Sequence record: NZ_CP054002.1
Length of the DNA: 64,000 nt
DNA from: a plasmid
Reading direction: 5' to 3' (one strand)
The notes under the pieces are model-generated. The model did not search any database and had not been told where the DNA came from. It saw only the letters and a list, made by a program, of their open reading frames with translations. Of this stretch, positions 20,555 to 57,627 are shown piece after piece (the stretch's first letter is position 1; each line of letters begins with the position of its first letter). The position numbers and the translations under genes were made by a program.

Positions 20555-20575
20555 TTCAGTTTAAAAAAAGGTTCG
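20555..20575. repeat. 21-bp terminal IR of tra module copy A, right end: TTCAGTTTAAAAAAAGGTTCG
   Basis: Perfect reverse complement of 3594..3614. Confidence 0.85.
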
Positions 20576-20644
20576 TTATATTGAATGCAAAATTCAAATA
20601 AATATTTAAAACAGCAAAAATTTTGTGGTTAAATATTGTAATTT

Positions 20645-20851: not shown

Positions 20852-21002
20852 TTCTTTAATATTAAAAAATGTATATATAGTTTAATGTATCAAAAAATCG
20901 AATGTTATATAACTTATATATGTTATATATATTGTATATGTTATATATCTTTGTTGGGCGATTAATTCATGCAAAGATATAGATTATTAATTTAAAACAT
21001 AA

Positions 21003-21275: not shown

Positions 21276-21574
21276 ATGTAGAATATTCAAAGCCATTTTT
21301 AAAGGCAGTAGATAAATTATCAGGGAAAGTTCTGTCTTCTGTCCTTGATATGATCCGGGAAGTGAAGAATGCTAATGGTATTGATGAAATTACTAATTGC
21401 AAGAAACTCATTGCCTATAAATCAGTATATCGGATTCGTATAGGAGATTATAGAGCATTCTTTATTTTCCACGTTAAGATTGTAGATGATACAGTTAAAT
21501 TTGAATATCTAGTATCAAGAGGGGAAGCATACGATAAAAAAGTACAGTCAGAGTTACGGAAAAAGGATAAATGA
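21272..21574 (+). CDS. RelE/ParE-family toxin (100 aa)
   Basis: Characteristic core ...YRIRIGDYRAFFIFH... Confidence 0.75.
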   Translation: MNVEYSKPFLKAVDKLSGKVLSSVLDMIREVKNANGIDEITNCKKLIAYKSVYRIRIGDYRAFFIFHVKIVDDTVKFEYLVSRGEAYDKKVQSELRKKDK

Positions 21575-21583
21575 TAATTTATT

Positions 21584-22777
21584 ATGGAAAAAGAATTAAG
21601 CCGGGTTCCACGCCTATTAAGTGAAAGTTACAATTCTGGGCTAATTGAGCGCTTATATGATTCTGGCGGTAGTGTAATGCTAGATATTATAATTTACCTT
21701 TGTGGGAATCATATTAGAGATCTATTTGGTGAATCATGGTTCTCAATAGAGGATTTTTGTAATAAAATGGGTTATAATCGGACAAATCTTCAAAGAAAAC
21801 TATCTAAGGAACAGCTGAAGGATCTTTTTGGAAAACGCTCACCTCATTATATCTGTAAGGATATAAACGGGGAGGAAATAAGCCACCCCATAGAAACCGT
21901 TTTTGAAGCCGCCCTTTATAAACTTGGCTTAGAAAATATGTCTTATCCTGTTTCTACAAGCGAAGGCACTTCATATATATTTATTCAGATCCTTACCAAA
22001 TTTGAAATCCGGACAAATTTTAAAACCAAGAAAGGAACGAAAAGATTATATAGTGCTACTCTGAATAATCTGATAAAGGATTCTGTTTATACTCTCTATA
22101 ATCTAATTGAAAGTCAGGATTATAGAGAGTTACCTTCCAAATATCGATATTTCTATTTGGAACTATCGAAAATGATATATCTTATTAAGTATAAAATCAA
22201 AACAGGAGATGCACCTAGTTACAGATTAACCGTTGATCAGTTGGCTAAGTTGTTCAACCTCAATTTTGAAGAGAATAAGGAAAGGAAAAGAAATGTAACA
22301 AAAGTTTTGAAGGGGATAAATGAACACTTGAGATTTACCAACTTTCAATTTAAGTACGTTAAAGGTGCTAATGATAAATGGGCATATACGGTAGATTTTG
22401 AATTTTCTCAAGAAACGCTTGATTATTTTGATGAACGCTATACCGCTATGTTTACTCAAAGATTCTATAGTGATCTGTTATGGAGATACGCTGGTTTAGC
22501 TTTTCCTAATTGTGCGGTAGGCAGAGATCGGGTTAACAAAGTTGAAGATATAAAATCTGATCGAAACTTGTATGAAGATTATTTGGCATGGGCTAATTCT
22601 CCACAAAACAAAGCACTGAAAGAGGAAGTATATAGGGAAAATTTCTTTCGGGTATTTGGAAAAACCCCTGAAGAGTTTGGATTAACTAGTAATGCCCCGA
22701 CTGTGACACGTGAGCCAAAGGAATTTATAGTTAAAAATCCACCTACTGTGACACCTGAACCGGAAAAGATTATCTAG
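21584..22777 (+). CDS. rep: plasmid-type replication initiator (Rep, 397 aa), intact copy
   Basis: Large basic protein immediately followed by its iteron array (classic theta-replicon layout); the other two copies are disrupted. Confidence 0.6.
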   Translation: MEKELSRVPRLLSESYNSGLIERLYDSGGSVMLDIIIYLCGNHIRDLFGESWFSIEDFCNKMGYNRTNLQRKLSKEQLKDLFGKRSPHYICKDINGEEISHPIETVFEAALYKLGLENMSYPVSTSEGTSYIFIQILTKFEIRTNFKTKKGTKRLYSATLNNLIKDSVYTLYNLIESQDYRELPSKYRYFYLELSKMIYLIKYKIKTGDAPSYRLTVDQLAKLFNLNFEENKERKRNVTKVLKGINEHLRFTNFQFKYVKGANDKWAYTVDFEFSQETLDYFDERYTAMFTQRFYSDLLWRYAGLAFPNCAVGRDRVNKVEDIKSDRNLYEDYLAWANSPQNKALKEEVYRENFFRVFGKTPEEFGLTSNAPTVTREPKEFIVKNPPTVTPEPEKII

Positions 22778-23095
22778 CTGTGTAAAACACTACACTTTTC
22801 AATTCTGTTAACATTTCCAGCTGTGTAAAACACTACACTTTTAGGTTTCCAGCTGTGTAGAATGCTACACTTTTGGGTTTCCAGCTGTGTAAAATACTAC
22901 ACTTTTAGGTTTCCAGCTGTGTAGAATGCTACACTTTTGAAAATTTAGCTGTGTAAAACACTACACTTTTGAATTTAGCTGTGTAAAATACTACACCATA
23001 TTAAAGATATCGCAAAAAAATAAAGTGTTGATTTTTAGATAATTAATGAAAAGTGATTTTTTCCAGCTGTGTAAAAGGCTACACCATATTTCTTA
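22775..23095. repeat. iteron array (putative oriV): ~8 repeats of AGCTGTGTA(A/G)AA(C/T)(A/G)CTACACTTTT at ~33-bp spacing
   Basis: Directly visible; each iteron contains an internal palindrome GTGTAG-N4-CTACAC; the first iteron overlaps the rep stop codon. Confidence 0.8.
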
Positions 23096-23215
23096 ATATA
23101 ACCTAAAAACCTAAACCCCCTATAATCCCCCAAAGGGGGACAGAAGAAATGACCGGAAAAATGATATTTTTCCTTCAGCTTATATCATCATACTTTCGGA
23201 AAAATACTATCGGGC

Positions 23216-23230
23216 ATGACAAATTGTCAT
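23216..23230. promoter_or_regulatory. perfect 15-bp palindrome ATGACAAATTGTCAT, followed by repeated GTAAAAT/ATTTTAC motifs (23290..23420)
   Basis: Directly visible; same in all three P copies; lies upstream of the conserved 67-aa and 78-aa genes. Confidence 0.45.
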
Positions 23231-23428
23231 ATTTTGAGGAAAGTAATAATTCTCCAATCTCCTTTAATCAGAGGTGAGAAAGAGAAACAACAGCTGTTTT
23301 ACTTTTGGTATACGTTAAGTAAAATGTTTTTTTTGGCATGTATCAAGAAAAAACACATTTTACTTTATTGTTTTACTAAATTATTTTACTACCTTTACAA
23401 AAAGTAAAATGATAAAAGCATAATAGAT

Positions 23429-23632
23429 ATGACTGATGATGATATTAAAGATTTGAAGAAAGATTTACTTCAGTTGTTTATGAAGTACAATGTTTCCATA
23501 GGCTTCACTTGTGCAGACTGTAGTGATACATATGGATTATATGATGATCATATAGTTATACAGGATAATAATAGTAGGGAAAATGTACTAGAAACTGATG
23601 GATGGTGGTTAAATATAAGCCATTTGCGATAA
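23429..23632 (+). CDS. 67-aa Cys-containing hypothetical protein
   Basis: Identical in three copies. Confidence 0.5.
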   Translation: MTDDDIKDLKKDLLQLFMKYNVSIGFTCADCSDTYGLYDDHIVIQDNNSRENVLETDGWWLNISHLR

Positions 23633-23660
23633 TTTCAAATAATAAGAAAGGAGTAATAAT

Positions 23661-23897
23661 ATGGCAATTGATACAGAAAGGATATTTCTTTTAGCAACTA
23701 AAAAAAGCCAGCGAGTGGAAAATCTGACCTATTGTATAGGTGTGCATCGATTAGGAACTCCAAACATGGAGTACATTCTAGGAGAAACAGACAATGACCG
23801 TGAATATAGGCAAGGTGATGAAGTTTCATATATTTATCATGCGGAATATGCCTATACGTTGCAGGAGGCTCTAGATTGGCTAAATAATGTAAATTAG
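23661..23897 (+). CDS. 78-aa hypothetical protein
   Basis: Intact only in this copy; 9-bp gap with RBS-like GGAG before the start. Confidence 0.45.
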   Translation: MAIDTERIFLLATKKSQRVENLTYCIGVHRLGTPNMEYILGETDNDREYRQGDEVSYIYHAEYAYTLQEALDWLNNVN

Positions 23898-23953
23898 TAT
23901 AAAATGAAATCCTCAATAAATGTTTAATGAAGAATTAAAATCCTCGTATTATA

Positions 23954-24541
23954 ATGAAGATAGGATATGCACGTGTATCGACTCCGGATCAGAATCCAGC
24001 TTTGCAATTGGAAGCATTAGAAAAGGCTGGTTGTGAGAAAATTTATCAAGAAAAAAAATCAGCGTTTAAAGAACGTCCTGAATTAATCCGGGCATTAGAA
24101 GATCTTAGAACTGGGGATATCTTATATGTCTGGTCGTTGGATCGTTTAGGCAGATCCATGAAGGAAATCCGGACGAATGTAGATCTAATAATGAATAAGG
24201 GAGCGCATCTTGTCGATGTAACGCATAATATCGATACGTCCACTCCTTCCGGGAAACTTTTGATCCCGATATTTTCAATGTTGGCAGAAATCGATCAGGT
24301 TTTACGTACAGAAAGAACGGTTGCAGGTTGGGAAGTCGCAAAACGTGAGGGAAGAACAGGAGGAAGAAAGCCCGGCTTAAATGATTTAGCGAAAAAGAAA
24401 GCCGAGCAGGCAAAGAAAATGTATCTGTCAAAAGATCCCTTCTATTCAGCAAAAGAGATCGCTTCAATTCTCAATATCTCCACGAGAACTTTGTATAAAT
24501 ATTTGCGTTCTGTTGGGGTTGAACCAAAACAAAACCAGTAA
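23954..24541 (+). CDS. serine recombinase (resolvase/DNA-invertase family, 195 aa)
   Basis: N-terminal catalytic motif GYARVSTPDQ..., C-terminal HTH (ISTRTLYKYL). Confidence 0.85.
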   Translation: MKIGYARVSTPDQNPALQLEALEKAGCEKIYQEKKSAFKERPELIRALEDLRTGDILYVWSLDRLGRSMKEIRTNVDLIMNKGAHLVDVTHNIDTSTPSGKLLIPIFSMLAEIDQVLRTERTVAGWEVAKREGRTGGRKPGLNDLAKKKAEQAKKMYLSKDPFYSAKEIASILNISTRTLYKYLRSVGVEPKQNQ

Positions 24542-24579
24542 CCGGTTATCTCTTAATGGAAAGTAAGGTAGGAAATCCC

Positions 24580-24804
24580 CTACCCTATTTCCATTTTAAC
24601 TTGTTGCAAAGCCCCTTTGAGTTCTTTCATTGTGTCCCTTTTGTGCTTCTTGCATTCTTCCGGCTGAATGATTTGGAACTGTTCATCTTGGTAGTTGACC
24701 GCACCGCAAATCTTTCCGTCATGGTCGCAAATGGTATCATAACCGCCAAGTGTTTCACTTAGCCATAGCATACCGCAAGAGCATTGCACTTTTATTATTC
24801 CCAT
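24580..24804 (-). CDS. 74-aa Cys4 zinc-ribbon-like hypothetical protein
   Basis: CSCG...CDHDGKIC; conserved in the P3 copy (62393..62617). Confidence 0.4.
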   Translation of the reverse strand: MGIIKVQCSCGMLWLSETLGGYDTICDHDGKICGAVNYQDEQFQIIQPEECKKHKRDTMKELKGALQQVKMEIG

Positions 24805-24898
24805 ATATATATTTTTAGTTGATTATTTACATGTCTTCTATTGTCAATGATTTACTAATTAATATGATAAGGAAAGGTAAAACAACCTTTCCTTATGG

Positions 24899-25387
24899 CT
24901 ATTTTTTTCCTAAAGTACCGTTTATGAATTTGCGTTTATAGCTTGCTATTTCTTTCTTATTTTCTTCCAAAAATGCTTCAAGCAGATTTCCTAGCATTTG
25001 CATCATTGGAACTTTTGACATTGTAGATAGTATTTTAAGTTCTTGATGGAACTCTCTAGGTATCTTTATCGTTTCCGTGTCTATTATCTCTCTTTTAGCG
25101 AAAAGCAAAGAAAGACCTTTAGGAAAAGATGATTCGGGAAATTCTGAAGGTTCTTCTGTCATATTCTCATTTTCCTGAATGATTTCTTCTTCTTGTACTG
25201 GAGCAACAACTTTAGCTGGTTCTGTGGTGCTGGCTGCTGGTTGTACTTCCGGAATTTTCTCTTCTGAAGTCTGTTGTGATGAAACAGATTTTATACTTTG
25301 AACTTTCTTAGCTTCTTCTTTACCAGCCTGTACCAATGCGAACATTGATGTTTTGGGTTTTCCTGTATTTTTCTTTTCTTCAGCCAT
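24899..25387 (-). CDS. ParA-partner protein (TraB-like; possible centromere-binding adaptor), 162 aa
   Basis: Immediately downstream of parA on the same strand; low-complexity acidic N-terminal half. Confidence 0.45.
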   Translation of the reverse strand: MAEEKKNTGKPKTSMFALVQAGKEEAKKVQSIKSVSSQQTSEEKIPEVQPAASTTEPAKVVAPVQEEEIIQENENMTEEPSEFPESSFPKGLSLLFAKREIIDTETIKIPREFHQELKILSTMSKVPMMQMLGNLLEAFLEENKKEIASYKRKFINGTLGKK

Positions 25388-25391
25388 AATT

Positions 25392-26087
25392 TCATTTTTT
25401 AACGTAATTGATTAATAATTGTATCATTTCTTCTCCGAAATCATCACAGGTGTGATTATAGTTGTTTATTATCGTAGAAAGGTTTCTTTGGTAATTAACT
25501 TTGCTTTCCTTGATATGATTGTTCAGTAGCTCGAAAGGTAAATTGTCTTTGTTTGCTATAAGCTCTTTATATTCAAGCAAATTAGGTGTTACCTTGTTAG
25601 GCAATCCTTTTACTATTGTTTTGTAACCTAGACTTTCTCGTTTAGATAAGATATTTTCCTTGTAGTAATTGTAGAACTTTACAGTGTGCAATACTTCGAT
25701 TTTTGAAGGAGCAAAAGGTATAATGACCACATCCATCATCATTAGGGTTTCTACTACTCCTGCCTGTTTCAAGTTTCCCGGAAAGTCAACCACTATTATA
25801 TCGAAACTTTCTTTGAGAAATTCTATGCTGTTAATGAAGTCTGATGAAGATATACTCATTACTTCATACTCGTCTTTTATATCCTCTTCCTGTTGTGCTT
25901 CATCGAAAGCTCTTAACTCCCCCATTGTATTTTGCGCATCGTCTATATCGACAACGCCAATGGTTAAACCTGTCTGCTCGTGGCTCTCATGTACATATCC
26001 TGCGAACAAGGCTGTTAATGTTGATTTACCTGTTCCACCTTTTGGGTTCTCGAATGCTACGAATATACCCGGTAATATTTTTCCCAT
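25392..26087 (-). CDS. parA: ParA/Soj-family partition ATPase (TraA-like), 231 aa
   Basis: Deviant Walker A KGGTGKST near the N-terminus. Confidence 0.8.
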   Translation of the reverse strand: MGKILPGIFVAFENPKGGTGKSTLTALFAGYVHESHEQTGLTIGVVDIDDAQNTMGELRAFDEAQQEEDIKDEYEVMSISSSDFINSIEFLKESFDIIVVDFPGNLKQAGVVETLMMMDVVIIPFAPSKIEVLHTVKFYNYYKENILSKRESLGYKTIVKGLPNKVTPNLLEYKELIANKDNLPFELLNNHIKESKVNYQRNLSTIINNYNHTCDDFGEEMIQLLINYVKK

Positions 26088-26099
26088 AACGTTACGAGT

Positions 26100-26340
26100 T
26101 TAAATTTTTCGCAATATATGAATTAATAATCTAACTAACAAATTAATCAGCTTGTTTAACAAATAATTAACCAATAATCTTATTACATAACCATTTAATA
26201 AACTAATTAGTTAATTAAATGGTTAATTATACAATTAATAGATTAGTTATCTAGTTAATAAGTTATTTGATTTATTTATTAATTAGTTAATTAGTTTATG
26301 GATTAATTAGTTTTCTGATAAACTAGCTAACTAGTTGTTT
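26100..26340. repeat. AT-rich array of degenerate TTAATTAG / CTAATTAA / AACTAGCTAACTAGTT repeats upstream of parA (parS/centromere-like candidate)
   Basis: Directly visible; at least 10 occurrences of TAATTAG-type units within ~240 bp. Confidence 0.4.
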
Positions 26341-26485
26341 TTTTGTTGCCGTGCTTTCAGTTCTTCCTTTTGTTAAGTTATCTGGTTACTTGGTTAATTA
26401 GGGAATCAGTTCTTTGGGTTGATTTTTCCGAAAGTATAGATCTTAAAGTTTTGGTGCTTTATAATTTTTATCTATCTTTGTATAT

Positions 26486-26522
26486 GCAAGGTGTGGTTTT
26501 GTAGCTACAAAACCCACCTTGC
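26486..26522. other. candidate oriT hairpin GCAAGGTGTGGTTTTGTAG-CTACAAAACCCACCTTGC
   Basis: Near-perfect 18-bp inverted repeat in the parA–mobA intergenic region, ~70 bp upstream of mobA. Confidence 0.45.
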
Positions 26523-26589
26523 GACAGCCGAGCTGACGAGTGATGTTCGTTTCACTCACATACATTAGAATAGAGAATAGGAATATAGA

Positions 26590-26898
26590 ATGAAAGAGAA
26601 TAGAACTAAAGTTATTCGGGCACGTCTTTCTGAAGAAGAAAAGGAACAGGTTTTCAGACGAGCTAAAGCTGAAGGTGTAACACTTTCTATGTATTTAAGA
26701 AAATCTGTTTTAGGGGAAAGGATAACTTCAAAAGCGGATATTCAAACCGTCTTTGAACTGAAAAAAATAGGTACTAATTTGAATCAACTTGCAAAGCATG
26801 TTAACTCTTTACCTGTTGATGAAAATATTCGTCTTTCATTGGAAAGTATAGAGATGTACATTAAAGAGTTGAAGCAAATAACAGATAAACTAATATGA
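26590..26898 (+). CDS. mobA: MobA/MobC-type relaxosome accessory protein (RHH-like, 102 aa)
   Basis: Small basic protein overlapping the relaxase start by 4 bp. Confidence 0.55.
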   Translation: MKENRTKVIRARLSEEEKEQVFRRAKAEGVTLSMYLRKSVLGERITSKADIQTVFELKKIGTNLNQLAKHVNSLPVDENIRLSLESIEMYIKELKQITDKLI

Positions 26899-28313
26899 TA
26901 GCGGAGATACAAGACCCGTTTGTAGGAGAAGCATTAAACCGTAAAATCGATTATCAGTTAAAGAAGATTGAAAGCGGTGTAGCTAGGGAATTATATAATT
27001 CTTCTGGTGATTCTCTTATTAATATGTATCGTAATATGTCCCTTGTTGCTGGTCTGAATGATCGTGTGAAATCACCATATATAGAATTTATTCTTAGCAG
27101 CCCGATAGGGGAGGATCTTCCGGACGAAAAGTTTTCTGAAGTAGCGAAAGAATATTTGGAAAGAATGGGATACGGTGATTCTTGCTACACCATCATAAAG
27201 AACGATGATAAGGACCACCGACATGTACATATACTTGCCACTACGATAGACTTAAACGGCTTGTGGATCTCTGATAGTTACAGCAAGGGACGTTCTGGAA
27301 AGATCATGCGAGAGCTAGAGCTTAAACATGGGCTTGAAGTTATGGAGAAAGGAAAGTCTTCCCGGAACAAGACGTTGGGAGAATCCCAGTACCGGCAATA
27401 TTTCTTTGACACAGCTTTGCACAAGGCTTTGCGCAGCCATAATGCAAAAGAACGGGTGAAGGATCTTCTAGGGCAGTCGGAAACCTTTAAAACGATTAAT
27501 CCTGATATGACTAAGGCTTATACTAATGCGGAATGGAAAATCATATTGGGGGAAGATACATACGAAAATATGTTAGATATGTTATCAAAAGGAAAGTTCT
27601 TTAATCCATTACTCAAGGACGAGTTACTTTCCGTCATGGATCGTTTGCGTCAGGAATGCGGCAACATGAAAGAGTTCCGGGATCGATTGGAAAAAGAAGG
27701 GTATTATATGCGTCTGGTATCGGACAAGGGGAAATCTCATTATGTATATGGCATTCCTGATAGGGGCTTTTATCTGAAAGATACAGCCCTTCCGGAATCG
27801 TACCGGTTTGGGAAACTTTTGTTCGCCGGAAAACAAATGACCGCAGACGAGCAAAAGCATTATCTGTATAACCAGATCTTTGCAGTTCTTAATGGTTCAT
27901 CCAGCTATGAAGATTTTAAAGACCGGCTAGCGGAGCATAATATAAATCTGATCGAGCACGTCAACGGTAAAGGGATATACGGCATATCCTTTGCCCTTAC
28001 AAATGTCGATACTCCGGAAATCTTTAAAAGCTCTGATGTATCAAGGAGATTAACCTATCAGAACATACAAGACTTCTTCCAAAAAGAGCAGAATCCGGAA
28101 CAGGGAAAAGAACAGGAGAGAGCAACACCCATCGATCCGGTTATCGTGTGTTATGCGAGTAATCCGCACGAATGGGAGAAGGATCTTATCTATATGTACC
28201 CGGTTGCCATGTCAATGGCTTTAGATAACGGATCAGGGAAGCACCGGAAAGGTGATGAAGATCTTCCGGACAACAAGAAAAAGAAAAAGCGAAATAAAGG
28301 ATTATCATATTAA
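26895..28313 (+). CDS. mobB: relaxase / mobilization nuclease (MobB-like, 472 aa)
   Basis: Histidine-triad motif KDHRHVHILATTIDLNG in the N-terminal domain. Confidence 0.75.
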   Translation: MIAEIQDPFVGEALNRKIDYQLKKIESGVARELYNSSGDSLINMYRNMSLVAGLNDRVKSPYIEFILSSPIGEDLPDEKFSEVAKEYLERMGYGDSCYTIIKNDDKDHRHVHILATTIDLNGLWISDSYSKGRSGKIMRELELKHGLEVMEKGKSSRNKTLGESQYRQYFFDTALHKALRSHNAKERVKDLLGQSETFKTINPDMTKAYTNAEWKIILGEDTYENMLDMLSKGKFFNPLLKDELLSVMDRLRQECGNMKEFRDRLEKEGYYMRLVSDKGKSHYVYGIPDRGFYLKDTALPESYRFGKLLFAGKQMTADEQKHYLYNQIFAVLNGSSSYEDFKDRLAEHNINLIEHVNGKGIYGISFALTNVDTPEIFKSSDVSRRLTYQNIQDFFQKEQNPEQGKEQERATPIDPVIVCYASNPHEWEKDLIYMYPVAMSMALDNGSGKHRKGDEDLPDNKKKKKRNKGLSY

Positions 28314-28358
28314 TAACAAAATTGAATAGAAAATGCGCAAAAAAAGAAGCAAATTAGT

Positions 28359-28571
28359 ATGGAAGCAAATCGCTTCAAAAACGTAAGCGAATTGATAAAA
28401 TCGTTTGAGGAGTATTCTGGGTTCAGTATTGATCCGGAAGAGATAGATACTCGTGATAAGCTGTTGGATAAAATTTCGGAAATACAGGACTATTTATCTA
28501 ATGAAGTATCAGATATATGTTCTCAGTATTATTATGAAGCAGGACAATTAATGCCTGAAGATGAAGATTAA
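28359..28571 (+). CDS. 70-aa acidic hypothetical protein
   Basis: ORF track only. Confidence 0.35.
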   Translation: MEANRFKNVSELIKSFEEYSGFSIDPEEIDTRDKLLDKISEIQDYLSNEVSDICSQYYYEAGQLMPEDED

Positions 28572-28588
28572 CGTATAACGAATCGGAA

Positions 28589-28849
28589 ATGAACGATATA
28601 CTATTCAAAAAAATAAAAAGAGCAAACAGTAAATATGCTGAATACTTATCAGCTTGCGATAAAGTAGCTAAAGCAGCCCAAAAGCATATAAACTGGAACG
28701 ATAGCGTAGGTTGTGCCTATATGCCGGGTGACGGTCTTTGCATAGAGATTGAAGCCCATGTTTGCCCAGCTACAAGATTTTTTGAGCTACCTGATATTAT
28801 CGGTAATGATATGATTGATGAATACACATATCGAACCAATTGCATTTAA
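28589..28849 (+). CDS. 86-aa hypothetical protein
   Basis: ORF track only. Confidence 0.35.
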   Translation: MNDILFKKIKRANSKYAEYLSACDKVAKAAQKHINWNDSVGCAYMPGDGLCIEIEAHVCPATRFFELPDIIGNDMIDEYTYRTNCI

Positions 28850-28866
28850 TTTAAAACAAGTTAATC

Positions 28867-29838
28867 ATGAACTACAGCGAAGTTTTAAATCCATACCAGC
28901 CGTTAGAAACCGGCGATTTCATGTACCGGTATTATATTAATGACCGGGAGTATATAATTTATTCACCGGAACGAAACAAGATATCCTGTTTGGAGTTGTT
29001 CGATTTCAAAGATCTTAGCGCTTTTCAATTATCTATATCCATCCAAGCGAAAGTACAGGTGCAATCGGAAAGCGAGGAATTGAAGGAGTTTAGTTTTGAT
29101 CACGTATGTAGCAAAGAAGATCTGATAGCTTATCTCTTTGATATTACTGAAGGAAAAACGGAGATCCGGAAGGTGAGAAAGGTTTCAAATAACGAGGGCT
29201 ATTTCCTTTTTGAACTGAAGAGTGCGCATAAGATCCGGAACTTTTACCAGTTCAACCCGGAAAGTAAAGAGTATCAGCTCGTGTTTGACAATGATATTTG
29301 CTGTGCAGCGATATATGAAGATGTAACTTCTGATGTCGTAAACGTGTGCTGGAATCCTGCTATCTTTAGTATATTAGAAGGACAGACAGAGCAGCAGAAT
29401 ACTTCTTATCTTCTGCCTTCTTCTAATCCTATCCTTTGTGCGCATGTCTGCAAGAAAGCGCAGGAGAGAAACGCTAGGATCAATCTGTACGTAGGCAAAA
29501 ACGGCATAGAAGCTCTTTTGTTCTTTTCTTACTATATAGCTTCTAAAGGAATTGAGAAAAGCATTTCTATTTTTTCCGACAGTAAGCAGGTGACTGTAGA
29601 AATGGATCGTTGGAATCCTGTTACGGTGGTTAAACTTATGTCTAAGATGCAGAAAACGATCAATGATAAGTTAAGGAAACAGTTTGGGGAAGAAGATGAA
29701 GTGACCATTTACCGGCTGGAATCCGTAGCGGGGAAATCTTTTCTTGCTTTTCAAAACCATCCTCTAGCAATAGATGTGTTCTTTCGGAATATCATCCCGT
29801 TATATGGTTTGGAAAATATTGAGTATATAGAAATGTAG
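28867..29838 (+). CDS. 323-aa hypothetical protein
   Basis: ORF track only; no recognisable motif. Confidence 0.45.
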   Translation: MNYSEVLNPYQPLETGDFMYRYYINDREYIIYSPERNKISCLELFDFKDLSAFQLSISIQAKVQVQSESEELKEFSFDHVCSKEDLIAYLFDITEGKTEIRKVRKVSNNEGYFLFELKSAHKIRNFYQFNPESKEYQLVFDNDICCAAIYEDVTSDVVNVCWNPAIFSILEGQTEQQNTSYLLPSSNPILCAHVCKKAQERNARINLYVGKNGIEALLFFSYYIASKGIEKSISIFSDSKQVTVEMDRWNPVTVVKLMSKMQKTINDKLRKQFGEEDEVTIYRLESVAGKSFLAFQNHPLAIDVFFRNIIPLYGLENIEYIEM

Positions 29839-30158
29839 CTTGTTGTTTATCTGATAAACAAGAAAAAATTATTCTAAATAGGAAACATTTTTATAGGGAA
29901 ATTGTTATTTTTGTGCAGTCGTAAACCGACCGTGTTTTTACATATTGAAGAAAAAAAGCGTTTAGCTGATTTCTGTGCAAGCGAAAAGTCCAAAAATTGC
30001 ATTATACACAGAGAAACAGATAAATGCTCCCCGTGATATGCGGGGGGTATCTCCTGTTTGTGTGTATAGGGCTTGGACTCCCTCGCTTGCGGATAGGCGA
30101 ATGCCCTTCCGCTTTTTTTATGTTTATTGGCTTGGTGTAGGGCACAAGCGAAAACCTT

Positions 30159-30485
30159 ATGGCAATGGAAAAGACACAGCGAAAACAGTCCCTAAACTGC
30201 TTGTCAAACACTCCTAAGCTGTTTGACCTAAACGAACTACTAAGCTCGCTCAAGATCACACCCGGACAAATGGAGAACATGAAAGGGTTGATATACATCG
30301 AAGGGCTGACGGAAAAGCAAGTACGCCAAAGATTAAGCCATGCAAAGATCATCAGAACAAATAAATTCGGGGTTAATTCCTGCCTGTATTATATCCTCTT
30401 TGAGGATGTAAAGGGGAGATATTTGTGCCTGTTTAACGGTGACAGGGAATGTTTCAGAGCGTTGTTTTTCAGTATTCACCTGTAA
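30159..30485 (+). CDS. 108-aa hypothetical ORF in the ermF upstream region; may be a remnant
   Basis: ORF track only; a terminator-like hairpin plus T7 run (30088..30125) lies just upstream. Confidence 0.25.
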   Translation: MAMEKTQRKQSLNCLSNTPKLFDLNELLSSLKITPGQMENMKGLIYIEGLTEKQVRQRLSHAKIIRTNKFGVNSCLYYILFEDVKGRYLCLFNGDRECFRALFFSIHL

Positions 30486-30495
30486 GAAGTTACTA

Positions 30496-31296: not shown

Positions 31297-31508
31297 TTCA
31301 AAGTCGGGTGGTTGTCAAGATGATTTTTTTGGTTTGGTGTCGTCTTTTTTTAAGCTGCCGCATAACGGCTGGCAAATTGGCGATGGAGCCGACTTTTAGC
31401 ACAAATGTTGAATAGAATTACTAATCTTCAACATTGCACAAAAGTTCAATAGAAGTACTTCACCGGCTCTATTGCCAATTTGTTTGTTATGTGCCGTTTT
31501 ATTCCATT

Positions 31509-32675
<1,167 letters not shown>

Positions 32676-35842: not shown

Positions 35843-36766
35843 TTATACTTTCGGAAAAAATCTGTGTTTAGATACTTTTTCTGTGTTTAATCCTAGTTCT
35901 TTGCTATCGCTTTGGGCTAGTTTGATGTTGCTTAATCCGGGAGCATCAGAGGGCAGACCGAAGATCTTCTGGACTGCTATCATCGTTGGAGCCGGTGCGG
36001 ATCCTTTCAGGTTGTTTATCGCTTCCGGAGAAGGGATATATCCTTCATCCTTTAGGAAAGAGATCTGTGCAAAGTCATTTTTTTTTATGGCAAGAAAAAA
36101 GTCTTTTTCTTTTAGATATTGATCTACCATTTCTTTTAAATCATCTTTTACTAATGACCAGTAGTTACCCTTGAAGCAATCTATTCCTTCAGGTGATTCT
36201 TTTACAGAATCTATTTTTTGAAACCCATTTAATATACCTTCCTCTGTAACACTCCATTCGTTCCTTTTTATTCCCCAGTCGATCATATCTTTGAATGAAT
36301 ATTTTTCATTTAGTTCGTGGATATCCCAAAAGTCTTTTTGTCTTGGTTCTTCTTCTGTAATGGCAGATAGTTTCATGGCTGCTATTTCCCGTATGTCTGC
36401 TATTCGTATGTGGTCGATTTCTTGTATGGGGAAAATAAATTTTTCAGTATAGAAAAAATCGACTTTAATTTTGTCTATAGGGGAGTCCCCCATGTATAGT
36501 GTATATCCTAAAGCTGATGTGTCCAGAGAATCTGTATTCTCGGAATATGGAAAACTCCTTTGAATAAACTCTTTCATTTCTTTTGTATTCATGGTTCCAT
36601 AATCTATATCAGTGAATAAATCTATGTCAATAGATCTTCGATGTCCTAGTTGTAGGCTCAAACAGGTTCCACCTATAAGCGTGAAATCTTTAAAAATAGG
36701 ACTATTGACCAGCTTTTGCAGAGTTTCTTTTAATAAAGGAGAAACAGTTTCATAATGTAAGTTCAT
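35843..36766 (-). CDS. AbiEii/DUF1814-type nucleotidyltransferase fused to the shared C-terminal module (307 aa)
   Basis: NTase motifs LIGGTCLSLQLGHRRSIDIDLF; C-terminal ...KKNDFAQISFLKDEGYIPSPEAINNLKGSAPAPTMIAVQKIFGLPSDAPGLSNIKLAQ... Confidence 0.65.
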   Translation of the reverse strand: MNLHYETVSPLLKETLQKLVNSPIFKDFTLIGGTCLSLQLGHRRSIDIDLFTDIDYGTMNTKEMKEFIQRSFPYSENTDSLDTSALGYTLYMGDSPIDKIKVDFFYTEKFIFPIQEIDHIRIADIREIAAMKLSAITEEEPRQKDFWDIHELNEKYSFKDMIDWGIKRNEWSVTEEGILNGFQKIDSVKESPEGIDCFKGNYWSLVKDDLKEMVDQYLKEKDFFLAIKKNDFAQISFLKDEGYIPSPEAINNLKGSAPAPTMIAVQKIFGLPSDAPGLSNIKLAQSDSKELGLNTEKVSKHRFFPKV

Positions 36767-40604: not shown

Positions 40605-40740
40605 TTTACTTAGAATTTATTTCAAAGATATCAAATTTGATAGTATTGAGCAAATTTCTAAGTATATTTTTTATATTTAAACTTGATATTATCAGTTAGT
40701 AGACAGATAATTAAGAATATACTTTCGGAAAAATATTCTC

Positions 40741-43106: not shown

Positions 43107-45062
43107 TTATTCCTTCCATGCCTTATGATTATGATCTTTCGGCATGTTTTTTTCCTTATTTTTATTGTCCGTTTCTGTCTTATTCTTTACATCTTCCAAG
43201 ATCGCATTTACTTTTGAAATGATTGAAAGATAATGTTGACTAACTATTTCTTCCATTATATCATACTCTAATTCTTCTTTGCCATCTCCCAAATTTACAG
43301 GTTTGGAAAAAGCCGGAATATCCTTATCTATAAACTTACACATATTAAATTGTGTATTAAAATAAGGTGGTTTTCCGCCAGCGACCTTTCCGATGAAGTG
43401 ACCAACACTTTGTCCGGCAACTTCACGAGCCTTTACTACTTTCTCCTTTTGCAGAGATTCGGTCATGCTTCCAGTACCGGATTCTTGATGTGAGAACGAT
43501 TCCTGTGCTTCTTTCGTTTCTCCCAAAAGATTTTCTAGATCCTTTGCTGTCTTTTCGTTACCGGTCATTCCATAGGCTTGGCTACCACAAGAAGATCGCA
43601 GGATATTTGCACTTTTCTCTCCATAATCCCGGATTGCTTGATTAAAGTCCTGTACGGCTAAGATTGTAGCTACATTGTGTTTACGTGCTGTACCTATAAA
43701 TACATCTATACCTTGCAAATTTACCGTTGGAAATTCATCCACCATAAAAACGCTCTTTTGTTTGCCGGGATTATTCATTTGCGACATGACAACGCTAGCG
43801 ATACAACTAACAGGAGGAGATACAGCTTCTTTAATTGAAGGAGCATTGCCTATACACAATAGTGTAGGATGATCCGGATTAGTTATATCTAGTGAATATT
43901 CTTCTTCCGGAAGTGGTGATAGAACCCAAAAGATGTATTTATTGTTAAGCAAAACAAGCGGAGTCTGTGCGGAAGATACCGCACCAGCGGTCTGCTGCTG
44001 TGCGCCTAAACGCCATGCGGTTAACATGGAAGACATGTTTAGCGCAATTTCCGCATCCTCAGAGAGCCATTTAAAGACCAGATCACTATCTGATAATGCA
44101 AAAGCGATTACATGGGGTAAAGTTCCTATTCCCTTTGCTCGTTCTTTGTAACATTTATAAGCAATTGAATATACATAGTTAATCGCATTGTTCGCCCAGA
44201 AATCAGTTTTTTCCTTCCATGAACTTTCAAGGTTTTTCATTAAGGTAGTAGCGATATTACGAATAAACAAGGATTCGCTTCCTTTAGGGACATATTTTTC
44301 CGAAAGTACATTAACACGAACCGTCCGGGACATGTCTACAAAATTTATGAAAGCAAAGGCTGGTGTAGGTACATTTTTTCTCTTAAAATATTCTATACTA
44401 CCGTATGCGATCCGGGACAAAATAGGTGAACCCGGTTTACTAGGATCTCCTTCCCAATCATATACAAATCCGGCATAGTTACGCTCTGCACATTGATAGA
44501 TGATGCCTTTAATCCAGCTTTCCGATTTTCCAGATCCCGGACCACCGTCAATATAAAGATTTTGCTGTGGCTTATGGATTCTAAGATTTCCTTCTACTGT
44601 TTCAAAATCAAAATAAAACTCTGATTTTTCATGTGATACACCAAAGATAGATTTATCAGATACCACATGCCGTTTAAGGTAAAAACCGGCTGTTTGGATA
44701 ACTAGTATTGTAAATCCTATAAATACTATCGGAAAAACTAATAAATTGTACCATGATAGAACATTACTGAAGCCTAATATTAGGGCTATTGCTAAGATTA
44801 ATGTAGTGGCAGTATATACATATTTCAAGGATTCATCTCTTCTCTTTTGTACAGGGAATAGGAAAGCCAACCCAGCTAATAATACTACATATAGGAATCG
44901 AAACATAATAGCTTTGCGTAAAAACTTTCCCAACTGCAATAATACAGCTGGGCTTGGTGAACAAAGATCATTCACCAAAACCCACTGAAAGATTATCACA
45001 CCCCCGATTATTACGGAAAGCAATATAAAGACAAATGATAATTCCTTCTTTGCTGGTTCCAT
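43107..45062 (-). CDS. type IV coupling protein (copy B)
   Basis: Identical to 16928..18883. Confidence 0.8.
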   Translation of the reverse strand: MEPAKKELSFVFILLSVIIGGVIIFQWVLVNDLCSPSPAVLLQLGKFLRKAIMFRFLYVVLLAGLAFLFPVQKRRDESLKYVYTATTLILAIALILGFSNVLSWYNLLVFPIVFIGFTILVIQTAGFYLKRHVVSDKSIFGVSHEKSEFYFDFETVEGNLRIHKPQQNLYIDGGPGSGKSESWIKGIIYQCAERNYAGFVYDWEGDPSKPGSPILSRIAYGSIEYFKRKNVPTPAFAFINFVDMSRTVRVNVLSEKYVPKGSESLFIRNIATTLMKNLESSWKEKTDFWANNAINYVYSIAYKCYKERAKGIGTLPHVIAFALSDSDLVFKWLSEDAEIALNMSSMLTAWRLGAQQQTAGAVSSAQTPLVLLNNKYIFWVLSPLPEEEYSLDITNPDHPTLLCIGNAPSIKEAVSPPVSCIASVVMSQMNNPGKQKSVFMVDEFPTVNLQGIDVFIGTARKHNVATILAVQDFNQAIRDYGEKSANILRSSCGSQAYGMTGNEKTAKDLENLLGETKEAQESFSHQESGTGSMTESLQKEKVVKAREVAGQSVGHFIGKVAGGKPPYFNTQFNMCKFIDKDIPAFSKPVNLGDGKEELEYDIMEEIVSQHYLSIISKVNAILEDVKNKTETDNKNKEKNMPKDHNHKAWKE

Positions 45063-46864: not shown

Positions 46865-46914
46865 GATATTTATTTTTAAGTGATAACATTTTTACTTTCG
46901 GAAAAATCTATTAA

Positions 46915-48726
46915 TTATAAATCGGCAAACATTTTATTTACCGTATTGGCGAGAGGACGCTTTAGATCTTTTTCTGCACTTTGTTGACCTTGTGCTAGCT
47001 TAACATCTCCGAGCGTATTAGCAGAGCCTTTCAGATTAAATATCTTCTGAACGGCTATCATCGTATTGCCAGATGCAGTTTCATTCAAAGACTGAATCAA
47101 CTCTTTGGAAGGTTGATAGCCTTGTTCCTTCAGTTGTGACATCTTTACAAAATCGCCTTTCTCTACTGCTTCTTTAAATTCTTTATCTAGTTCCGGAGAA
47201 ACCTTAGCACTAGCAGGATCAGCATTAAGCTCTACCTTTGCTTCTTTGGATTCTTCCTTTGCTTGTGTTACTTCTTCCGCTTTTTGCACTTCAGGTTTCA
47301 TCCCAAATAGTTTTTCTATAACGATAGCTTGCGTCTGATCAATCTTTGTATCTTGTCCCAAACCTCTAATAACTTCCTCTGAAGGCTTGTAACCTTCCTC
47401 TTTCAAACTAGCTATTTTTTCATAGTCATTCTTGACAACGGCTTCTCTTAACTCCTTGTCAAGATCTCGATCAGGAACAGGATCCTTACCCGTTACTTTC
47501 TCCTGATATTGTTCCCGGATCTTCTCGACTTTAAAGCCTTCTTCTTTCAATTCCTTTTCAGTTGTACCTTTGGCGATTATTCCTTCTTTTTCTAACATAT
47601 CCCCAGCCTTTAACCTAATGCGTGCTTCAAGATCATAATTATAGTTTTTATCCGGATTTTCATCTTTCAGATAAGATAGGTATTCCTTATGTTCTGTGGC
47701 AAAATGGCTGTTTATTAATTGCTCATACCTTTTATCCTTCAACTCGTCTATATCGATTTTTCCGGTACGCTGCATATCCTTTAGCTTATCATTAAGATAC
47801 TCTTTATCCTTTGCCATTTCTCTTGCCTGTAAAATCTGCTGTGCCTTTGTTTCCGATATTTTCTGGATGTTTGAGAAAGCATATCCTTTCTTATCCGGAA
47901 GCATAGCTATATCTGTAATTATGTAACCTTCAGGAGTGTGGATCATTTTGTTATCTAAAGAATGACCATTCGCTAAAAGATACTTATCTGCTGCGGTCAA
48001 TTCGTAATCTCCAATTTTAGCAGGAACAGACAATTCTTTTTCCGAACGTACCACCACAGCGTTGAGATCCTTATCGACCTGAAGAAGTATATCTCCTTTT
48101 TTTGTTGACAAGACTATCACATTGCCATCAAGTAGATCTTGCTTCTGTTGCTTCGATAATTTCTTTCCGTAAATGCGATCCGGTATGGTTAACGCTTCCT
48201 TCCTATATATAATAGAAGTACCGTGTTCATGCAACCGAACTTTAGCTGGTTTACCATTGATATCCATTAATCCGGATAATACACCCTTCTCTAACTTTGT
48301 GCCTTTCCCGTCTAACGAGTAACCATTTTGCAAAGCATACTCATATAGTTCTTTTCCGGTATAACAGATTTTATTTTTATGATCGATCACAGTAAAACGA
48401 TCTTTGGCATCATTTTTTAGATCACCCCAGTTAACAATATCAACCCCTTCATTTTTTAATACGCTTTTATAGTCGGGAGATAAAGCCTGATCCCGATTAA
48501 AGAACTGGCAAACACGATCCATAGAAGCCTTTTCCGCAGATAAATCCGGTTCTCGCTTTGTGTGTGAACGTATCTTATCCATATCGATACGAAATACTTC
48601 GTCATTCCGGGTAAAAAGCAAAGAACCCTTGTTATAGGCTTCTTTGTAACCTAAACTTTCCGCAATCGCCCTAAATTGCCCGACATTATTATATTGATAT
48701 TCTGTTAGAACCTCTTGTAGCTTCAT
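46915..48726 (-). CDS. 603-aa protein with two copies of the shared module (copy B)
   Basis: Identical to 13264..15075. Confidence 0.7.
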   Translation of the reverse strand: MKLQEVLTEYQYNNVGQFRAIAESLGYKEAYNKGSLLFTRNDEVFRIDMDKIRSHTKREPDLSAEKASMDRVCQFFNRDQALSPDYKSVLKNEGVDIVNWGDLKNDAKDRFTVIDHKNKICYTGKELYEYALQNGYSLDGKGTKLEKGVLSGLMDINGKPAKVRLHEHGTSIIYRKEALTIPDRIYGKKLSKQQKQDLLDGNVIVLSTKKGDILLQVDKDLNAVVVRSEKELSVPAKIGDYELTAADKYLLANGHSLDNKMIHTPEGYIITDIAMLPDKKGYAFSNIQKISETKAQQILQAREMAKDKEYLNDKLKDMQRTGKIDIDELKDKRYEQLINSHFATEHKEYLSYLKDENPDKNYNYDLEARIRLKAGDMLEKEGIIAKGTTEKELKEEGFKVEKIREQYQEKVTGKDPVPDRDLDKELREAVVKNDYEKIASLKEEGYKPSEEVIRGLGQDTKIDQTQAIVIEKLFGMKPEVQKAEEVTQAKEESKEAKVELNADPASAKVSPELDKEFKEAVEKGDFVKMSQLKEQGYQPSKELIQSLNETASGNTMIAVQKIFNLKGSANTLGDVKLAQGQQSAEKDLKRPLANTVNKMFADL

Positions 48727-49990: not shown

Positions 49991-51299
49991 TATAATGCTT
50001 CAATTAGTTGGGTTAAAGGATTCTTTTTCTTTGGTTCATTCTGCTGCATCTGCATTTCTCTATACAGACGTTCTATTTCAGCTTCTTCTTCCTCTCTCTT
50101 TTTTCTGTCTTCATTAGTTTCTTCCTTGATATACATATTATAGTTAGCTTTTAAATGAACCTTTACTTGAGAAAGGCTTTGATTTAAAATTTGTCTAGTA
50201 ACCTGTGTAGTGGCTGTGATCGCACTAGTTACCTCACTTGTTACTGTGCCAATAGAAGAAATCGGAAGCTGCACGCTTGAAGCAAGCCCTGTTCCATTTT
50301 TCGAGCAGCTTCAGCTTTCATGTTATTGGGTAAATTCAATCCCTCAATCGCATCAGAATCATAAATAGTAAAAGCGACAGGACTTATATATTTCCCATAT
50401 CGTATGTTCTCTACCGTAATTTTCAAACGAGTAGAGCCGACACTAGCATTTCCGTAGAAGATCGTATTTGCAGGGATCTCAACGCCACCAACCCATAAAG
50501 GCTCTAACAAGCGCATCCGGACAGCACTTCCACTAACAATGGTCTGATCTCCATAAATAGCAGCTTTGATAAGATTGACTTTTTGGTCAATAGTAAACTG
50601 TGACCGGCGACGCCGTTTTCCATTTTCCACTATAAAAGTCGGCTTTGAAGCTTTCTCAACTTTAGGAACAGAATCATTTACTTTCGGAAAAATATTCTCT
50701 TGAGATTTCTCTATATCTTTTCCTGATGCTTGATCCTGATATTTCTTTCTCATTTCATCCCGGAATCTTGCATTTTCTTCTAGCTCTTTGCGTATTCTTT
50801 CCTCTTTCTTTGCTTCCTTGACTATCTGATTAAAGGTTTCTTGATCCTCAATATCATTTAGTTGTTGGCGCATTTTATCAGAAAATGCACTGTTAGATTT
50901 TTTTCCTCGCTCCTTGTATTCGCTAGTAACTTCGTCCAATGGATCTTTCTTCATTTTTTCAATACGAGCTTTCATTTTCTCGTTGTATTCGTCTTCGGAT
51001 GTCTGCATTTCAAAATAGAAATCGCTTCCTTTTACTTGTGATTTTTCCAATTCACGTTTCTTACGAGCAGCTTCTTCTTGTTCACGTTTATAAGCATCTA
51101 CCTTATTAGCGATCTTCTTTTCTCCTTCTGTGTCCGGTTCAAGAAAAGCCTGATTCACTTCTTCTGTATTGGATGCTGATTCAGCCGGTTTTTCTTTTTT
51201 ACCAAAGAAAACTATTACAAACAGTACGCCCAAAAGCAGAGGTACTAACATTAACAATTTGTTTTTGTCCTTCAACGCTTCTCTTAAAAAGTTTCCCAT
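49990..51299 (-). pseudogene. traM: TraM-like protein, frameshifted (352 aa + 94 aa), at a different site from copy A
   Basis: ORFs 50241..51299 and 49990..50274 overlap in different frames. Confidence 0.5.
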
Positions 51300-57234: not shown

Positions 57235-57627
57235 TTAAAGCGGAAAAATCAACACTTTCATATTGACAAAAACATCATCTGATTTTTCCGAAAGTACTTG
57301 ATGCTGGAATGGTGGTATCTTACCAGCATAATAGTACGCCCGGTTTGAAATATACATATCCGCTATCTCTCTACTTAATTCTTCATCATCTGAAAGATCC
57401 TTTTGAAAAACTATTGTTATGCGTGGAGATAAAACTAGATCAGAATCAGATTTTTCTTCTTCAACTGATAGTGAAGCTGTACACTCCGTTTTCTTTTTAC
57501 TTCCGGAAAAATAGACCAATCCTAAAATTAGAATTGAAACAATAACTATCGTAACTATCGCCAGATCAAATAATGAATAATTAGTGGCTAGATATTCAGT
57601 CATTTGTATATTTATATAAGCGACCAT
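57235..57627 (-). CDS. 130-aa N-terminal-TM protein (intact version of 4365..4773)
   Basis: ORF track. Confidence 0.4.
   Translation of the reverse strand: MVAYINIQMTEYLATNYSLFDLAIVTIVIVSILILGLVYFSGSKKKTECTASLSVEEEKSDSDLVLSPRITIVFQKDLSDDEELSREIADMYISNRAYYYAGKIPPFQHQVLSEKSDDVFVNMKVLIFPL

Follow-up and report, generated by a model that had tools for sequence, protein, structure and literature searches.

The plasmid and its repeated motif

The DNA analysed here, a 64-kb stretch of the plasmid record NZ_CP054002.1 that we call the window, belongs to an element which megablast and Pfam comparisons identify as a Bacteroides conjugative plasmid. It carries a short word of 14 base pairs (bp), TTTTTCCGAAAGTA, at eight independent loci, and we put it at somewhat under an even chance that this word is the putative site of a plasmid-encoded DNA-binding protein coordinating the backbone operons, in the manner of the KorA/KorB operators or the CUP repeats of other plasmids. 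The nearest reference is the polished B. fragilis BFG-642 plasmid CP103200.1 (L001 among the loci compared; 33,962 bp), which is 98.6% identical over the matched parts and served as the clean reference for counts. The backbone consists of the following genes and repeats:

Rep3-type initiator gene, followed by eight ~32-bp iterons
parA and the gene of its ribbon-helix-helix partner (24899-25387, minus strand)
mobC and the MobA/VirD2 relaxase gene
Toprim protein gene, abiEi/abiEii and two small serine recombinase genes
Bacteroidetes-type transfer operon, ending in DUF3945, a gene of 62 amino acids (aa), ardC, ssb and the coupling protein (T4CP) gene

The window is not unique DNA, and is made up of two repeated segments, B and C, and a single unique one, D:

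1-3580: reverse complement of part of C
3546-20596: B
20555-25651: C
~25651-41394: D
41394-58447: reverse complement of B
58379-63462: C

The copies of B differ from each other by 28 one-base indels, 26 of them in homopolymers, and five substitutions, and those of C by 13 homopolymer indels and no substitution, i.e. 41 indels and five substitutions in 22 kb of repeated DNA. Because nearly all of these differences are single-base homopolymer indels, we read the window as an unpolished, noisy long-read concatemer or fold-back of one ~37.8-kb circle. As a result of such indels many open reading frames (ORFs) are broken in one segment copy and intact in the other, as is traM, which is split at 10716-11312 and 11360-12001 and whole at 50241-51299; the ORF calls of the window should hence be checked against CP103200.1.

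In its 15-bp form, ATTTTTCCGAAAGTA, the motif has 12 exact matches in the window as against 0.00 in 100 dinucleotide-preserving shuffles, and 24 matches at up to two mismatches as against 0.63, which bears out the claim of a preliminary description of this DNA that the word recurs far above chance. Half of the 12 exact matches are assembly duplicates. Once these are collapsed, eight independent perfect copies of the 14-bp core are left, as that description had proposed, together with five independent one-mismatch copies that it did not list. CP103200.1 has the same eight perfect sites (0.0013 expected under the analytic first-order Markov model from which our expected counts are taken) and 13 sites at up to one mismatch (0.049 expected), and TTTTTCCGAAAGTA is the most frequent 14-mer both of this plasmid and of the related plasmid pMMCAT considered below. 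The flanks of the copies are unrelated to one another, and we are therefore dealing with a short motif rather than with pieces of a longer repeat or by-products of one duplicated fragment; the longer flanks earlier thought to be shared by several copies (GAGAAT and G) are not conserved in relatives. The primary sites had been placed correctly, but several duplicates were off by 1-8 nucleotides (nt) and belong at 23191-23205, 61007-61021, 46893-46907, 50679-50693, 44294-44308 and 4694-4708. The supposed T4 variant at 11297 and the perfect copy at 50679 are one and the same locus, differing in nothing but homopolymer length, as the segment copies do throughout. At 35846 the so-called A6 variant proves genuine: its 14-mer core is perfect, and base 1 of the 15-mer is all that differs. 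The independent copies and the features next to them are:

26422..26436, plus strand: perfect copy, with 13 nt between its end and the -33 element of the mobC-relaxase promoter
26450..26480, plus strand: mobC promoter, perfect Bacteroides consensus TTTG-N19-TATCTTTG, with the mobC ATG at 26590
~26486-26522: oriT-like 18-bp inverted repeat, 3' of the mobC promoter
40720..40734, minus strand: perfect copy, following the stop of the serine recombinase gene 40741-41340 by 6-7 nt and preceding the -33 element of the abiEi promoter by 65 nt
40623..40654, minus strand: abiEi promoter, perfect consensus TTTG-N20-TATCTTTG, upstream of the abiEi-like gene 39855-40604
46893..46907, minus strand (duplicate 15083-15097, plus): perfect copy, 7-8 nt past the DUF3945 stop; the ATG of the 62-aa gene preceding ardC follows after 28 nt
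35846..35860, minus strand: copy with perfect 14-mer core and T as base 1 of the 15-mer, where the gene group closing with the Toprim gene has its 3' end; its counterpart in CP103200.1 lies 8 nt past the toprim stop
23191..23205, minus strand (duplicates 1011-1025, plus, and 61007-61021, minus): perfect copy, separated from the last replication iteron by ~115 nt, GTA end facing the iterons, adjoining CCGGAAAAAT-GAT-ATTTTTCC
44294..44308, plus strand (duplicate 17682-17696, minus): perfect copy in the T4CP gene, antisense, codons V-L-S-E-K, frozen across the clade
44724..44738, minus strand (duplicate 17252-17266, plus): one-mismatch copy GTTTTTCCGATAGTA in the T4CP gene, sense, codons F-P-I-V, with synonymous sites conserved in most lineages
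50679..50693, minus strand (duplicate 11297-11311, plus, with the T4 homopolymer-length difference): perfect copy inside traM
48036..48050, plus strand (duplicate 13940-13954, minus): one-mismatch copy CTTTTTCCGAACGTA in the DUF3945 gene, antisense, codons V-R-S-E-K, frozen
57282..57296, plus strand (duplicate 4694-4708, minus): perfect copy, antisense within the gene of a small membrane protein in the transfer operon
57498..57512, minus strand (duplicate 4480-4494, plus): one-mismatch copy ATTTTTCCGGAAGTA in the same gene, convergent with the former and ~200 bp from it
24903..24917, plus strand (duplicate 62715-62729, plus): one-mismatch copy TTTTTTCCTAAAGTA at the 3' end of the gene of the ParA partner, marking the boundary of the conserved par module
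29570..29584, plus strand: one-mismatch copy TTTTTTCCGACAGTA in the 323-aa gene next after the relaxase gene

Occurrence in related plasmids and sister motifs

The enrichment extends to related elements, as a check proposed with the preliminary description had envisaged. The 98-kb plasmid pMMCAT (NZ_CP072215.1), whose T4CP is 73% identical to that of the window, has seven perfect 14-mers where 0.0024 are expected. Since these lie mostly at positions that are not orthologous to those in CP103200.1, the motif is maintained in the two lineages and has not come down as a single inherited block. A set of 80 metagenome contigs with T4CPs 71-100% identical contains 66 perfect copies against 0.024 expected, and 186 copies at up to one mismatch against 1.0 expected. 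The copies in relatives reduce to 72 non-redundant contexts without conserved flanks, in which T5, C6, C7 and G8 as well as G12 and T13 are near-invariant, and A9-A11 and T3 are tolerant of change. Plasmids bearing the motif are found in Bacteroides, Phocaeicola and Parabacteroides hosts. Equal frequency throughout bacterial genomes, which had been named as an observation that would speak against a specific signal, was not seen: in a scan of one genome per bacterial species, the matches listed are isolated singletons at about the chance rate in all phyla, and those listed with multiple matches per locus are plasmid-derived-looking fragments (L005, L045) and one unrelated repeat family (L081). 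Neither TTTTTCCGAAAGTA nor anything relevant to it was found in the literature searched, including that on pMMCAT, pBF9343/FinB and DUF3945, and the pMMCAT preprint makes no mention of the motif.

More distant plasmids have related words of their own. The top repeated word of pBF9343 and pBdorCL06T03-3, whose T4CP is 26% identical to that of the window, is TTTTCCCTAAAGTT, with 18-19 copies at up to two mismatches; in register it agrees with the window motif at 11 of 14 positions and, like it, tolerates change at positions 9-11. Most of its copies border intergenic modules of 250-300 bp that are repeated upstream of backbone genes, and plasmids of the pBF9343 type have four to five such module copies (in pBF9343, L205, at 2129-2412, 16535-16818, 32827-33080 and 33671-33970), bounded by convergent TTTTCCCTAAAGTT words. 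The same word is found in other flanks in pBACSA01 of P. salanitronis, and a further sister motif, TTTTCCCTATYGTT, has about 15 copies in the unnamed2 plasmid of B. faecis BFG-527, where 13 of 16 are intergenic. Different variants are used even by plasmid families of B. fragilis (CCGAAAGTA versus CCCTAAAGTT). Apart from a single one-mismatch copy in p5482, no member of the motif class was found in that plasmid or in a circular CTnDOT-like element, both of which lack MobC and a MobA/VirD2-type relaxase; the CTnDOT-like element is without the motif class even though it encodes DUF3945 and toprim proteins. Taken together, the evidence shows an element that is recognized at the level of DNA, is specific to one plasmid clade and has a specificity that co-evolves between clades. 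We also observed that p5482 (L002) has a repeated word of its own, TTAGTATTTTAGTA, which with its relatives lies in intergenic regions beside the rep, parA and ardC genes (1038-3942, 26743-26764 and 31004-31697), and plasmid-specific repeated intergenic words may be general in Bacteroides plasmids.

Placement of the copies and selection on the motif

To describe the placement of the motif we took as non-coding any sequence without long ORF coverage, which amounts to 9.9% of the total. By this measure 21 of the 72 sites (p = 4e-6) and 15 of the 28 perfect ones (p = 9e-9) are in non-coding DNA. Six of 70 sites lie 6-8 nt past the stop of an ORF on the same strand, a distance found for 1% of random positions, and the genes that such stop-proximal copies follow in the window are those of DUF3945, the recombinase and the Toprim group. 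At six of 71 sites, as opposed to 0.13% of random positions, a perfect TTTG-N19-21-TAnnTTTG promoter lies no more than 120 nt downstream on the motif's own strand, and the other three possible geometries of motif and promoter account for 0, 0 and 1 sites. Copies of the motif or its sisters also recur at a distance of 115-255 nt from iteron clusters, in CP103200.1, in pMMCAT (both clusters), in pBF9343 and in pBACSA01. In the window the eight ~32-bp iterons, TTTCCAGCTGTGTAAAACACTACACTTTTAGG, lie directly after the Rep3-type rep gene at ~22790-23090 (2738-3038 in CP103200.1) and are followed by a G5/C5 hairpin and by the inverted half-motifs CCGGAAAAAT-GAT-ATTTTTCC; this iteron and hairpin region is the probable oriV.

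About half of the copies are within genes, and here the conservation of codons is informative. We aligned four intragenic sites (T4CP +326 sense, T4CP +755 antisense, traM sense and DUF3945 antisense) across all nine distinct lineages with T4CPs at least 77% identical, which were chosen regardless of whether they retain the motif. Among codon columns with a shared amino acid, the ratio of invariant to variable ones is 15 to 4 within the motif versus 14 to 119 outside it (odds ratio 32, Fisher p = 1e-9). The traM copy stands out as an invariant I-F-P-K-V island in an indel-rich, hypervariable linker, and in pMMCAT-type lineages, which lack these intragenic copies, the same codons drift freely. 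The frozen synonymous columns show directly that the DNA word itself is under purifying selection in either orientation and in any frame. The retention of synonymous positions in four genes, which covers both strands and more than one reading frame, and the non-orthologous placement in diverged relatives strongly support the earlier suggestion, made from copies in intergenic DNA and in coding DNA of different frames, that the signal acts at the level of DNA.

Homology boundaries at the motif

Local alignments of diverged relatives start at the motif, 0-5 nt from the edge of its T-run, and always extend to the GTA side. We counted 16 unique contexts in which a high-scoring segment pair (HSP) ends in the 6-nt interval at the T-run edge, where ~0.5 were estimated by chance, and saw none ending at the opposite (GTA) edge among the relatives compared. 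In the mob module the T-run edge of the copy at 26422..26436 is exactly the left boundary of conservation, identity being 94% from the first T of the motif onward and the DNA upstream unalignable. The 62-aa/ardC and par modules have the same kind of boundary. In the comparison of L144 with L187 a boundary falls inside the T-run, and in the relative L130 a 98-codon ORF is inserted exactly between the DUF3945 stop and the motif. At the copy near the replication origin the flanks beyond the motif are still weakly similar, and the boundary there, at least, is accordingly one of conservation rather than exchange. Such polar boundaries fit a unit that has the motif as its outermost functional element; a recombination site, too, would produce them.

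A separate rearrangement is evident in the 17-kb transfer segment, which the window contains in both orientations (3546-20596 and 41394-58447) and which is inverted relative to CP103200.1. Its crossover core is a 23-bp inverted repeat, AACGAACCTTTTTTTAAACTGAA, 54 nt from the start of the serine recombinase gene 40741-41340 (minus strand), with junction cores at ~3556-3578, 20563-20585, 41413-41435 and 58397-58419. This core agrees with the Mpi/Fin invertase repeat consensus, ARACGTWCGT, at 8 of 10 positions. These observations suggest that the whole tra region is flipped by the recombinase, and such a flip probably caused the fold-back assembly.

Possible functions of the motif

The reading we tentatively favour, at the less than even chance stated above, is that TTTTTCCGAAAGTA would be a double-strand-DNA recognition site, similar to an operator, of a global regulator of the plasmid backbone. 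Some copies lie at what would be the heads of transcription units, right after the preceding stop and with 13-105 bp between them and the -33 element of the promoter that follows, as for mobC and abiEi. Others lie beside the replication iterons and within the long transfer operon, and with copies at all these places one protein could couple the replication, partition, mobilisation and transfer genes. The preliminary description had offered a regulator site, a modification or nicking target and a recombination site as alternatives, of which the first is the best supported, by the enrichment in non-coding DNA, the oriented proximity to promoters and the sister motifs in repeated intergenic modules, and nicking is unlikely. 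That a protein binds here, that the plasmid encodes it and that it affects transcription is what we infer from this arrangement. Across seven elements the genes co-occurring perfectly with the motif class are mobC, which codes for a ribbon-helix-helix protein, and that of the MobA/VirD2-type relaxase, the mobC counterpart of BFG-527 unnamed2 being presumed from an unannotated ORF directly upstream of its relaxase gene. As the best-correlated candidate binder among only seven elements, the relaxosome protein MobC is a pointer for the identity of the regulator.

Several observations weigh against an operator. Dimeric helix-turn-helix or ribbon-helix-helix repressors would be expected to bind a dyad or an array of direct repeats, but the motif is asymmetric in sequence and conservation alike, with a palindromic part limited to TTTC-C-GAAA, and is nearly always single, a double site being present in just one of the 72 contexts. 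The distance to the promoter is variable (13, 46, 49, 65 and 105 nt), pMMCAT has no copy upstream of mobC, and in pBF9343-type families the sister motif tends to point away from the adjacent gene. About half of the copies are intragenic, and a simple promoter operator does not predict that copies should be strongly conserved on both strands inside the T4CP, TraM and DUF3945 genes. Finally, no regulator common to the motif-bearing plasmids was found with Pfam, NCBIfam and PHROGs.

One alternative, which we regard as unlikely, is that the motif is a single-strand initiation signal for priming by the Toprim/DUF3991 primase module of the plasmid, with T5CC as the template start of a primer pppGGAAAAA and GAAAGTA as the 3' recognition element. 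The copy on the iteron side would then start vegetative replication, and the scattered copies on both strands would prime complementary-strand synthesis. An asymmetric, single site with near-invariant T5-C6-C7-G8 and G12-T13 around a tolerant middle, and a T/C tract followed by a 7-nt element in all sister motifs, are what such a signal might look like. All five motif-bearing plasmid families encode Toprim/DUF3991 proteins, the copies adjoining iteron clusters are reminiscent of ssiA/ssiB beside the iterons of RSF1010, and the selected intragenic copies occur every few kb on both strands, besides those 6-8 nt past same-strand stops. Yet the copies, seven plus and six minus, favour neither strand with respect to oriV or oriT, no hairpin and no inverted repeats common to the flanks are evident, and a specificity of 14 nt is far beyond that of known distributed primase sites. 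The CTnDOT-like element has the DUF3945 and toprim genes without the motif, clusters of three sister copies per ~400 bp in the intergenic modules of pBF9343-type plasmids are not required for priming, and the oriented association with promoters is left unaccounted for. The homology boundaries bring up a site of recombination or module exchange, for instance the half-site of one of the two plasmid serine recombinases with the crossover next to the T-run, at which related plasmids would swap backbone modules. The 16 HSP-end contexts, with the mob, 62-aa/ardC and par modules as examples, the insertion of extra genes exactly between stop codon and motif in L130, the two serine recombinase genes on the plasmid and one perfect palindrome of two half-sites beside the pMMCAT iterons (TACTTTCGGAAAAA-G-ATTTTTCGGAAGTA at pMMCAT 54316) would agree with this. 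We nevertheless hold it to be quite improbable: two half-sites are present at only one of 72 sites, none of 80 loci has an inversion or deletion endpoint at the motif, and the sole rearrangement seen, that of the 17-kb tra segment, uses another core. The insertions separating the window from CP103200.1 are not at motifs, the ori-site boundary is one of conservation, and BFG-527 unnamed2 has the motif class and no annotated serine recombinase. Moreover, conservation extends to copies inside essential genes, and if the DNA between convergent pairs were inverted, both the T4CP and the small membrane protein would be cut short.

A host factor of the Bacteroidales exploited by the plasmid, e.g. at the origin and at promoters, could explain why profile searches found no plasmid-encoded binder and why the same motif is used in plasmids of Bacteroides, Phocaeicola and Parabacteroides. 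The different variants in plasmid families of B. fragilis alone, and the lack of conserved chromosomal copies among the listed matches of the genome scan, make this a very improbable explanation. There is next to no likelihood that the recurrence is an artefact of assembly duplication, a set of fragments of a single repeat, or a restriction-modification or methylation target. Half of the 12 exact matches are indeed assembly duplicates, but the eight independent loci have unrelated flanks, and the sites recur in the polished CP103200.1 and in 80 independent metagenome contigs. A modification target is at odds with the length of the word, which far exceeds that of known methyltransferase targets, and with its being enriched instead of avoided, and a methylome study of the B. 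fragilis group contains no such motif (PMC10333322). Fragments of a longer repeat, duplication or miniature inverted-repeat transposable element were likewise rejected from the unrelated flanks and the sites in the polished plasmid; only the pBF9343-type sister motif does sit in longer modules.

Further candidates were set aside on more specific grounds. The reverse complement of the motif, TACTTTCG, resembles the -7 box TAnnTTTG, but the conserved and variable positions are the wrong ones for a core promoter element and the distances to start codons vary. An element acting near start codons or in RNA was considered for the several ATGs 8-12 nt downstream; these mostly belong to tiny or antisense ORFs, and sense and antisense copies are both conserved. 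A DnaA box is excluded by a match of only 7 of 9 positions to TTWTNCACA with the critical CAC missing, and by the variation between plasmid families. Binding by Rep is unlikely, with the array of ~32-bp iterons separate and the iterons of CP103200.1 and pMMCAT different while the motif is the same. The motif does loosely resemble iteron junctions, notably that of the 22-bp iterons of pBF9343 (TTTTTGTCCCTAGAAAGTT versus TTTTCCCTAAAGTT), but it is scattered, and lies beside rather than in the tandem array after rep. A centromere for ParA and its ribbon-helix-helix partner is unlikely in view of a separate TTAATTAGTTAA array between parA and mobC; this dense array of TTAATTAGTTAA / AACTAATTAGTT repeats at ~26130-26340 (6500-6710 in CP103200.1) is itself the likely centromere of that pair. 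A nic site of oriT is also unlikely, since a separate 18-bp inverted repeat is available at 26486-26522 and the motif has 13 copies and no adjoining inverted repeat. An intragenic invertible switch between the convergent pairs was dismissed, as flipping the DNA would cut both proteins short, and neither pair was seen inverted. Neither the tetX-region insertion nor that of the extra gene is at a motif, contrary to a hot spot for cargo insertion, and a genome-wide oriented word such as Chi, an uptake sequence or KOPS would require a high chromosomal frequency, which is not observed among the listed matches of the genome scan. The small proteins encoded downstream of the T4CP gene, considered as the regulator, are lipoproteins in the lineage of the window.

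Beyond the operator reading we considered a broader proposition, in which the motif class, defined by T4-5 C2-3, one or two variable bases, an A-rich triplet, GT and A/T, is a cis-acting system of the replicative MobC/MOBP-type conjugative plasmids of gut Bacteroidales, among them the pervasive pMMCAT, that provides distributed loading or priming sites for the DNA-processing proteins of the plasmid, or polar sites of module exchange, rather than classical promoter repression. Such a function would explain the frozen copies on both strands of essential transfer genes and the homology breaks at the T-run edge; we view this proposition as doubtful.

Other features of the plasmid

Compared with CP103200.1 the window has two additions, a tetX-containing insertion and one extra gene, neither of them at a copy of the motif. 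The former is a 2.8-kb insertion at 30475-33260 with the gene of an FAD-dependent monooxygenase (31509-32675, minus strand), which has matches in plasmids of Riemerella, Sphingobacterium and Enterobacteria that bear tet(X), and the plasmid is therefore a resistance-carrying derivative of a cryptic backbone. Five otherwise unrelated proteins have in common a C-terminal module of ~65-70 aa, ...KKNDFTRIAGLKDEGYIPSP...SAPAPTMIAVQKIFGL...IKLAQ, visible as 191-nt direct repeats at 35905, 37404 and 38692, which may be a secretion or recruitment signal for proteins passing through the conjugation channel. Its carriers, all on the minus strand, are:

35843-36766: extra 307-aa ORF
37366-38643: Toprim protein
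38648-39865: AbiEii-like nucleotidyltransferase
45362-46672: ArdC (weaker match)
46915-48726: DUF3945 protein (two module copies)

Comparison with known systems and implications

Plasmid-wide sets of repeated operators are well known in IncP, IncW and IncN plasmids, and in the literature searched none comparable is described for plasmids of Bacteroidales. The operators of KorB (OB) and KorA (OA), found for example in the IncP-1 plasmid RK2, are palindromic, and the dimers that bind them are those of known proteins, some copies being beside replication, partition and transfer promoters and others far off or intragenic. Our motif is like them in being a lineage-specific 13-15-bp word with about 7-12 copies per conjugative backbone, but the site in the window is asymmetric and single, there is no ParB/KorB-type protein, and the ParA partner is a ribbon-helix-helix protein with candidate centromere repeats of its own (TTAATTAGTTAA). 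The CUP repeats of IncN plasmids (pKM101/R46), which are thought to coordinate the backbone genes, and the operator families of the IncW plasmid R388 are repeated promoter-region modules upstream of backbone or leading-region genes. The intergenic modules of 250-300 bp bounded by the sister motif in pBF9343-type plasmids look very similar to CUP repeats, whereas the plasmid of the window repeats the 14-bp core alone, without a module, and about half of its copies are intragenic and selected. The ssiA and ssiB sites of RSF1010, strand-specific hairpins of ~40 nt that occur twice per plasmid beside iterons, resemble the motif as a plasmid-specific signal next to iterons in an element encoding its own primase-type protein, but differ from the unstructured 14-nt sites of the window, present in 8-13 copies per plasmid on both strands. 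The crossover sites of serine recombinases (res/hix/gix) consist of two inverted half-sites of 12-13 bp around a central dinucleotide, 26-30 bp in total. The motif recalls their half-sites in the A/T run beside a specific block of similar length, in the presence of recombinase genes and in the homology breaks at the T-run; unlike them, it lacks a second half-site at 71 of 72 loci and is not accompanied by rearrangements, and the real inversion site of the plasmid is a different sequence.

Plasmids of this kind spread resistance to tetracycline and macrolides, and pMMCAT also biofilm traits, among the dominant Bacteroidales of the human gut. The 14-bp word offers a probe for the controlling protein and 13 defined sites to mutate. 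It is also a signature by which plasmids of this clade can be recognized in metagenomes, as can their cousins by the sister motifs. If its function is truly a non-transcriptional one, such as priming, loading or module exchange, the motif would represent a new piece of the biology of conjugation in Bacteroidota.

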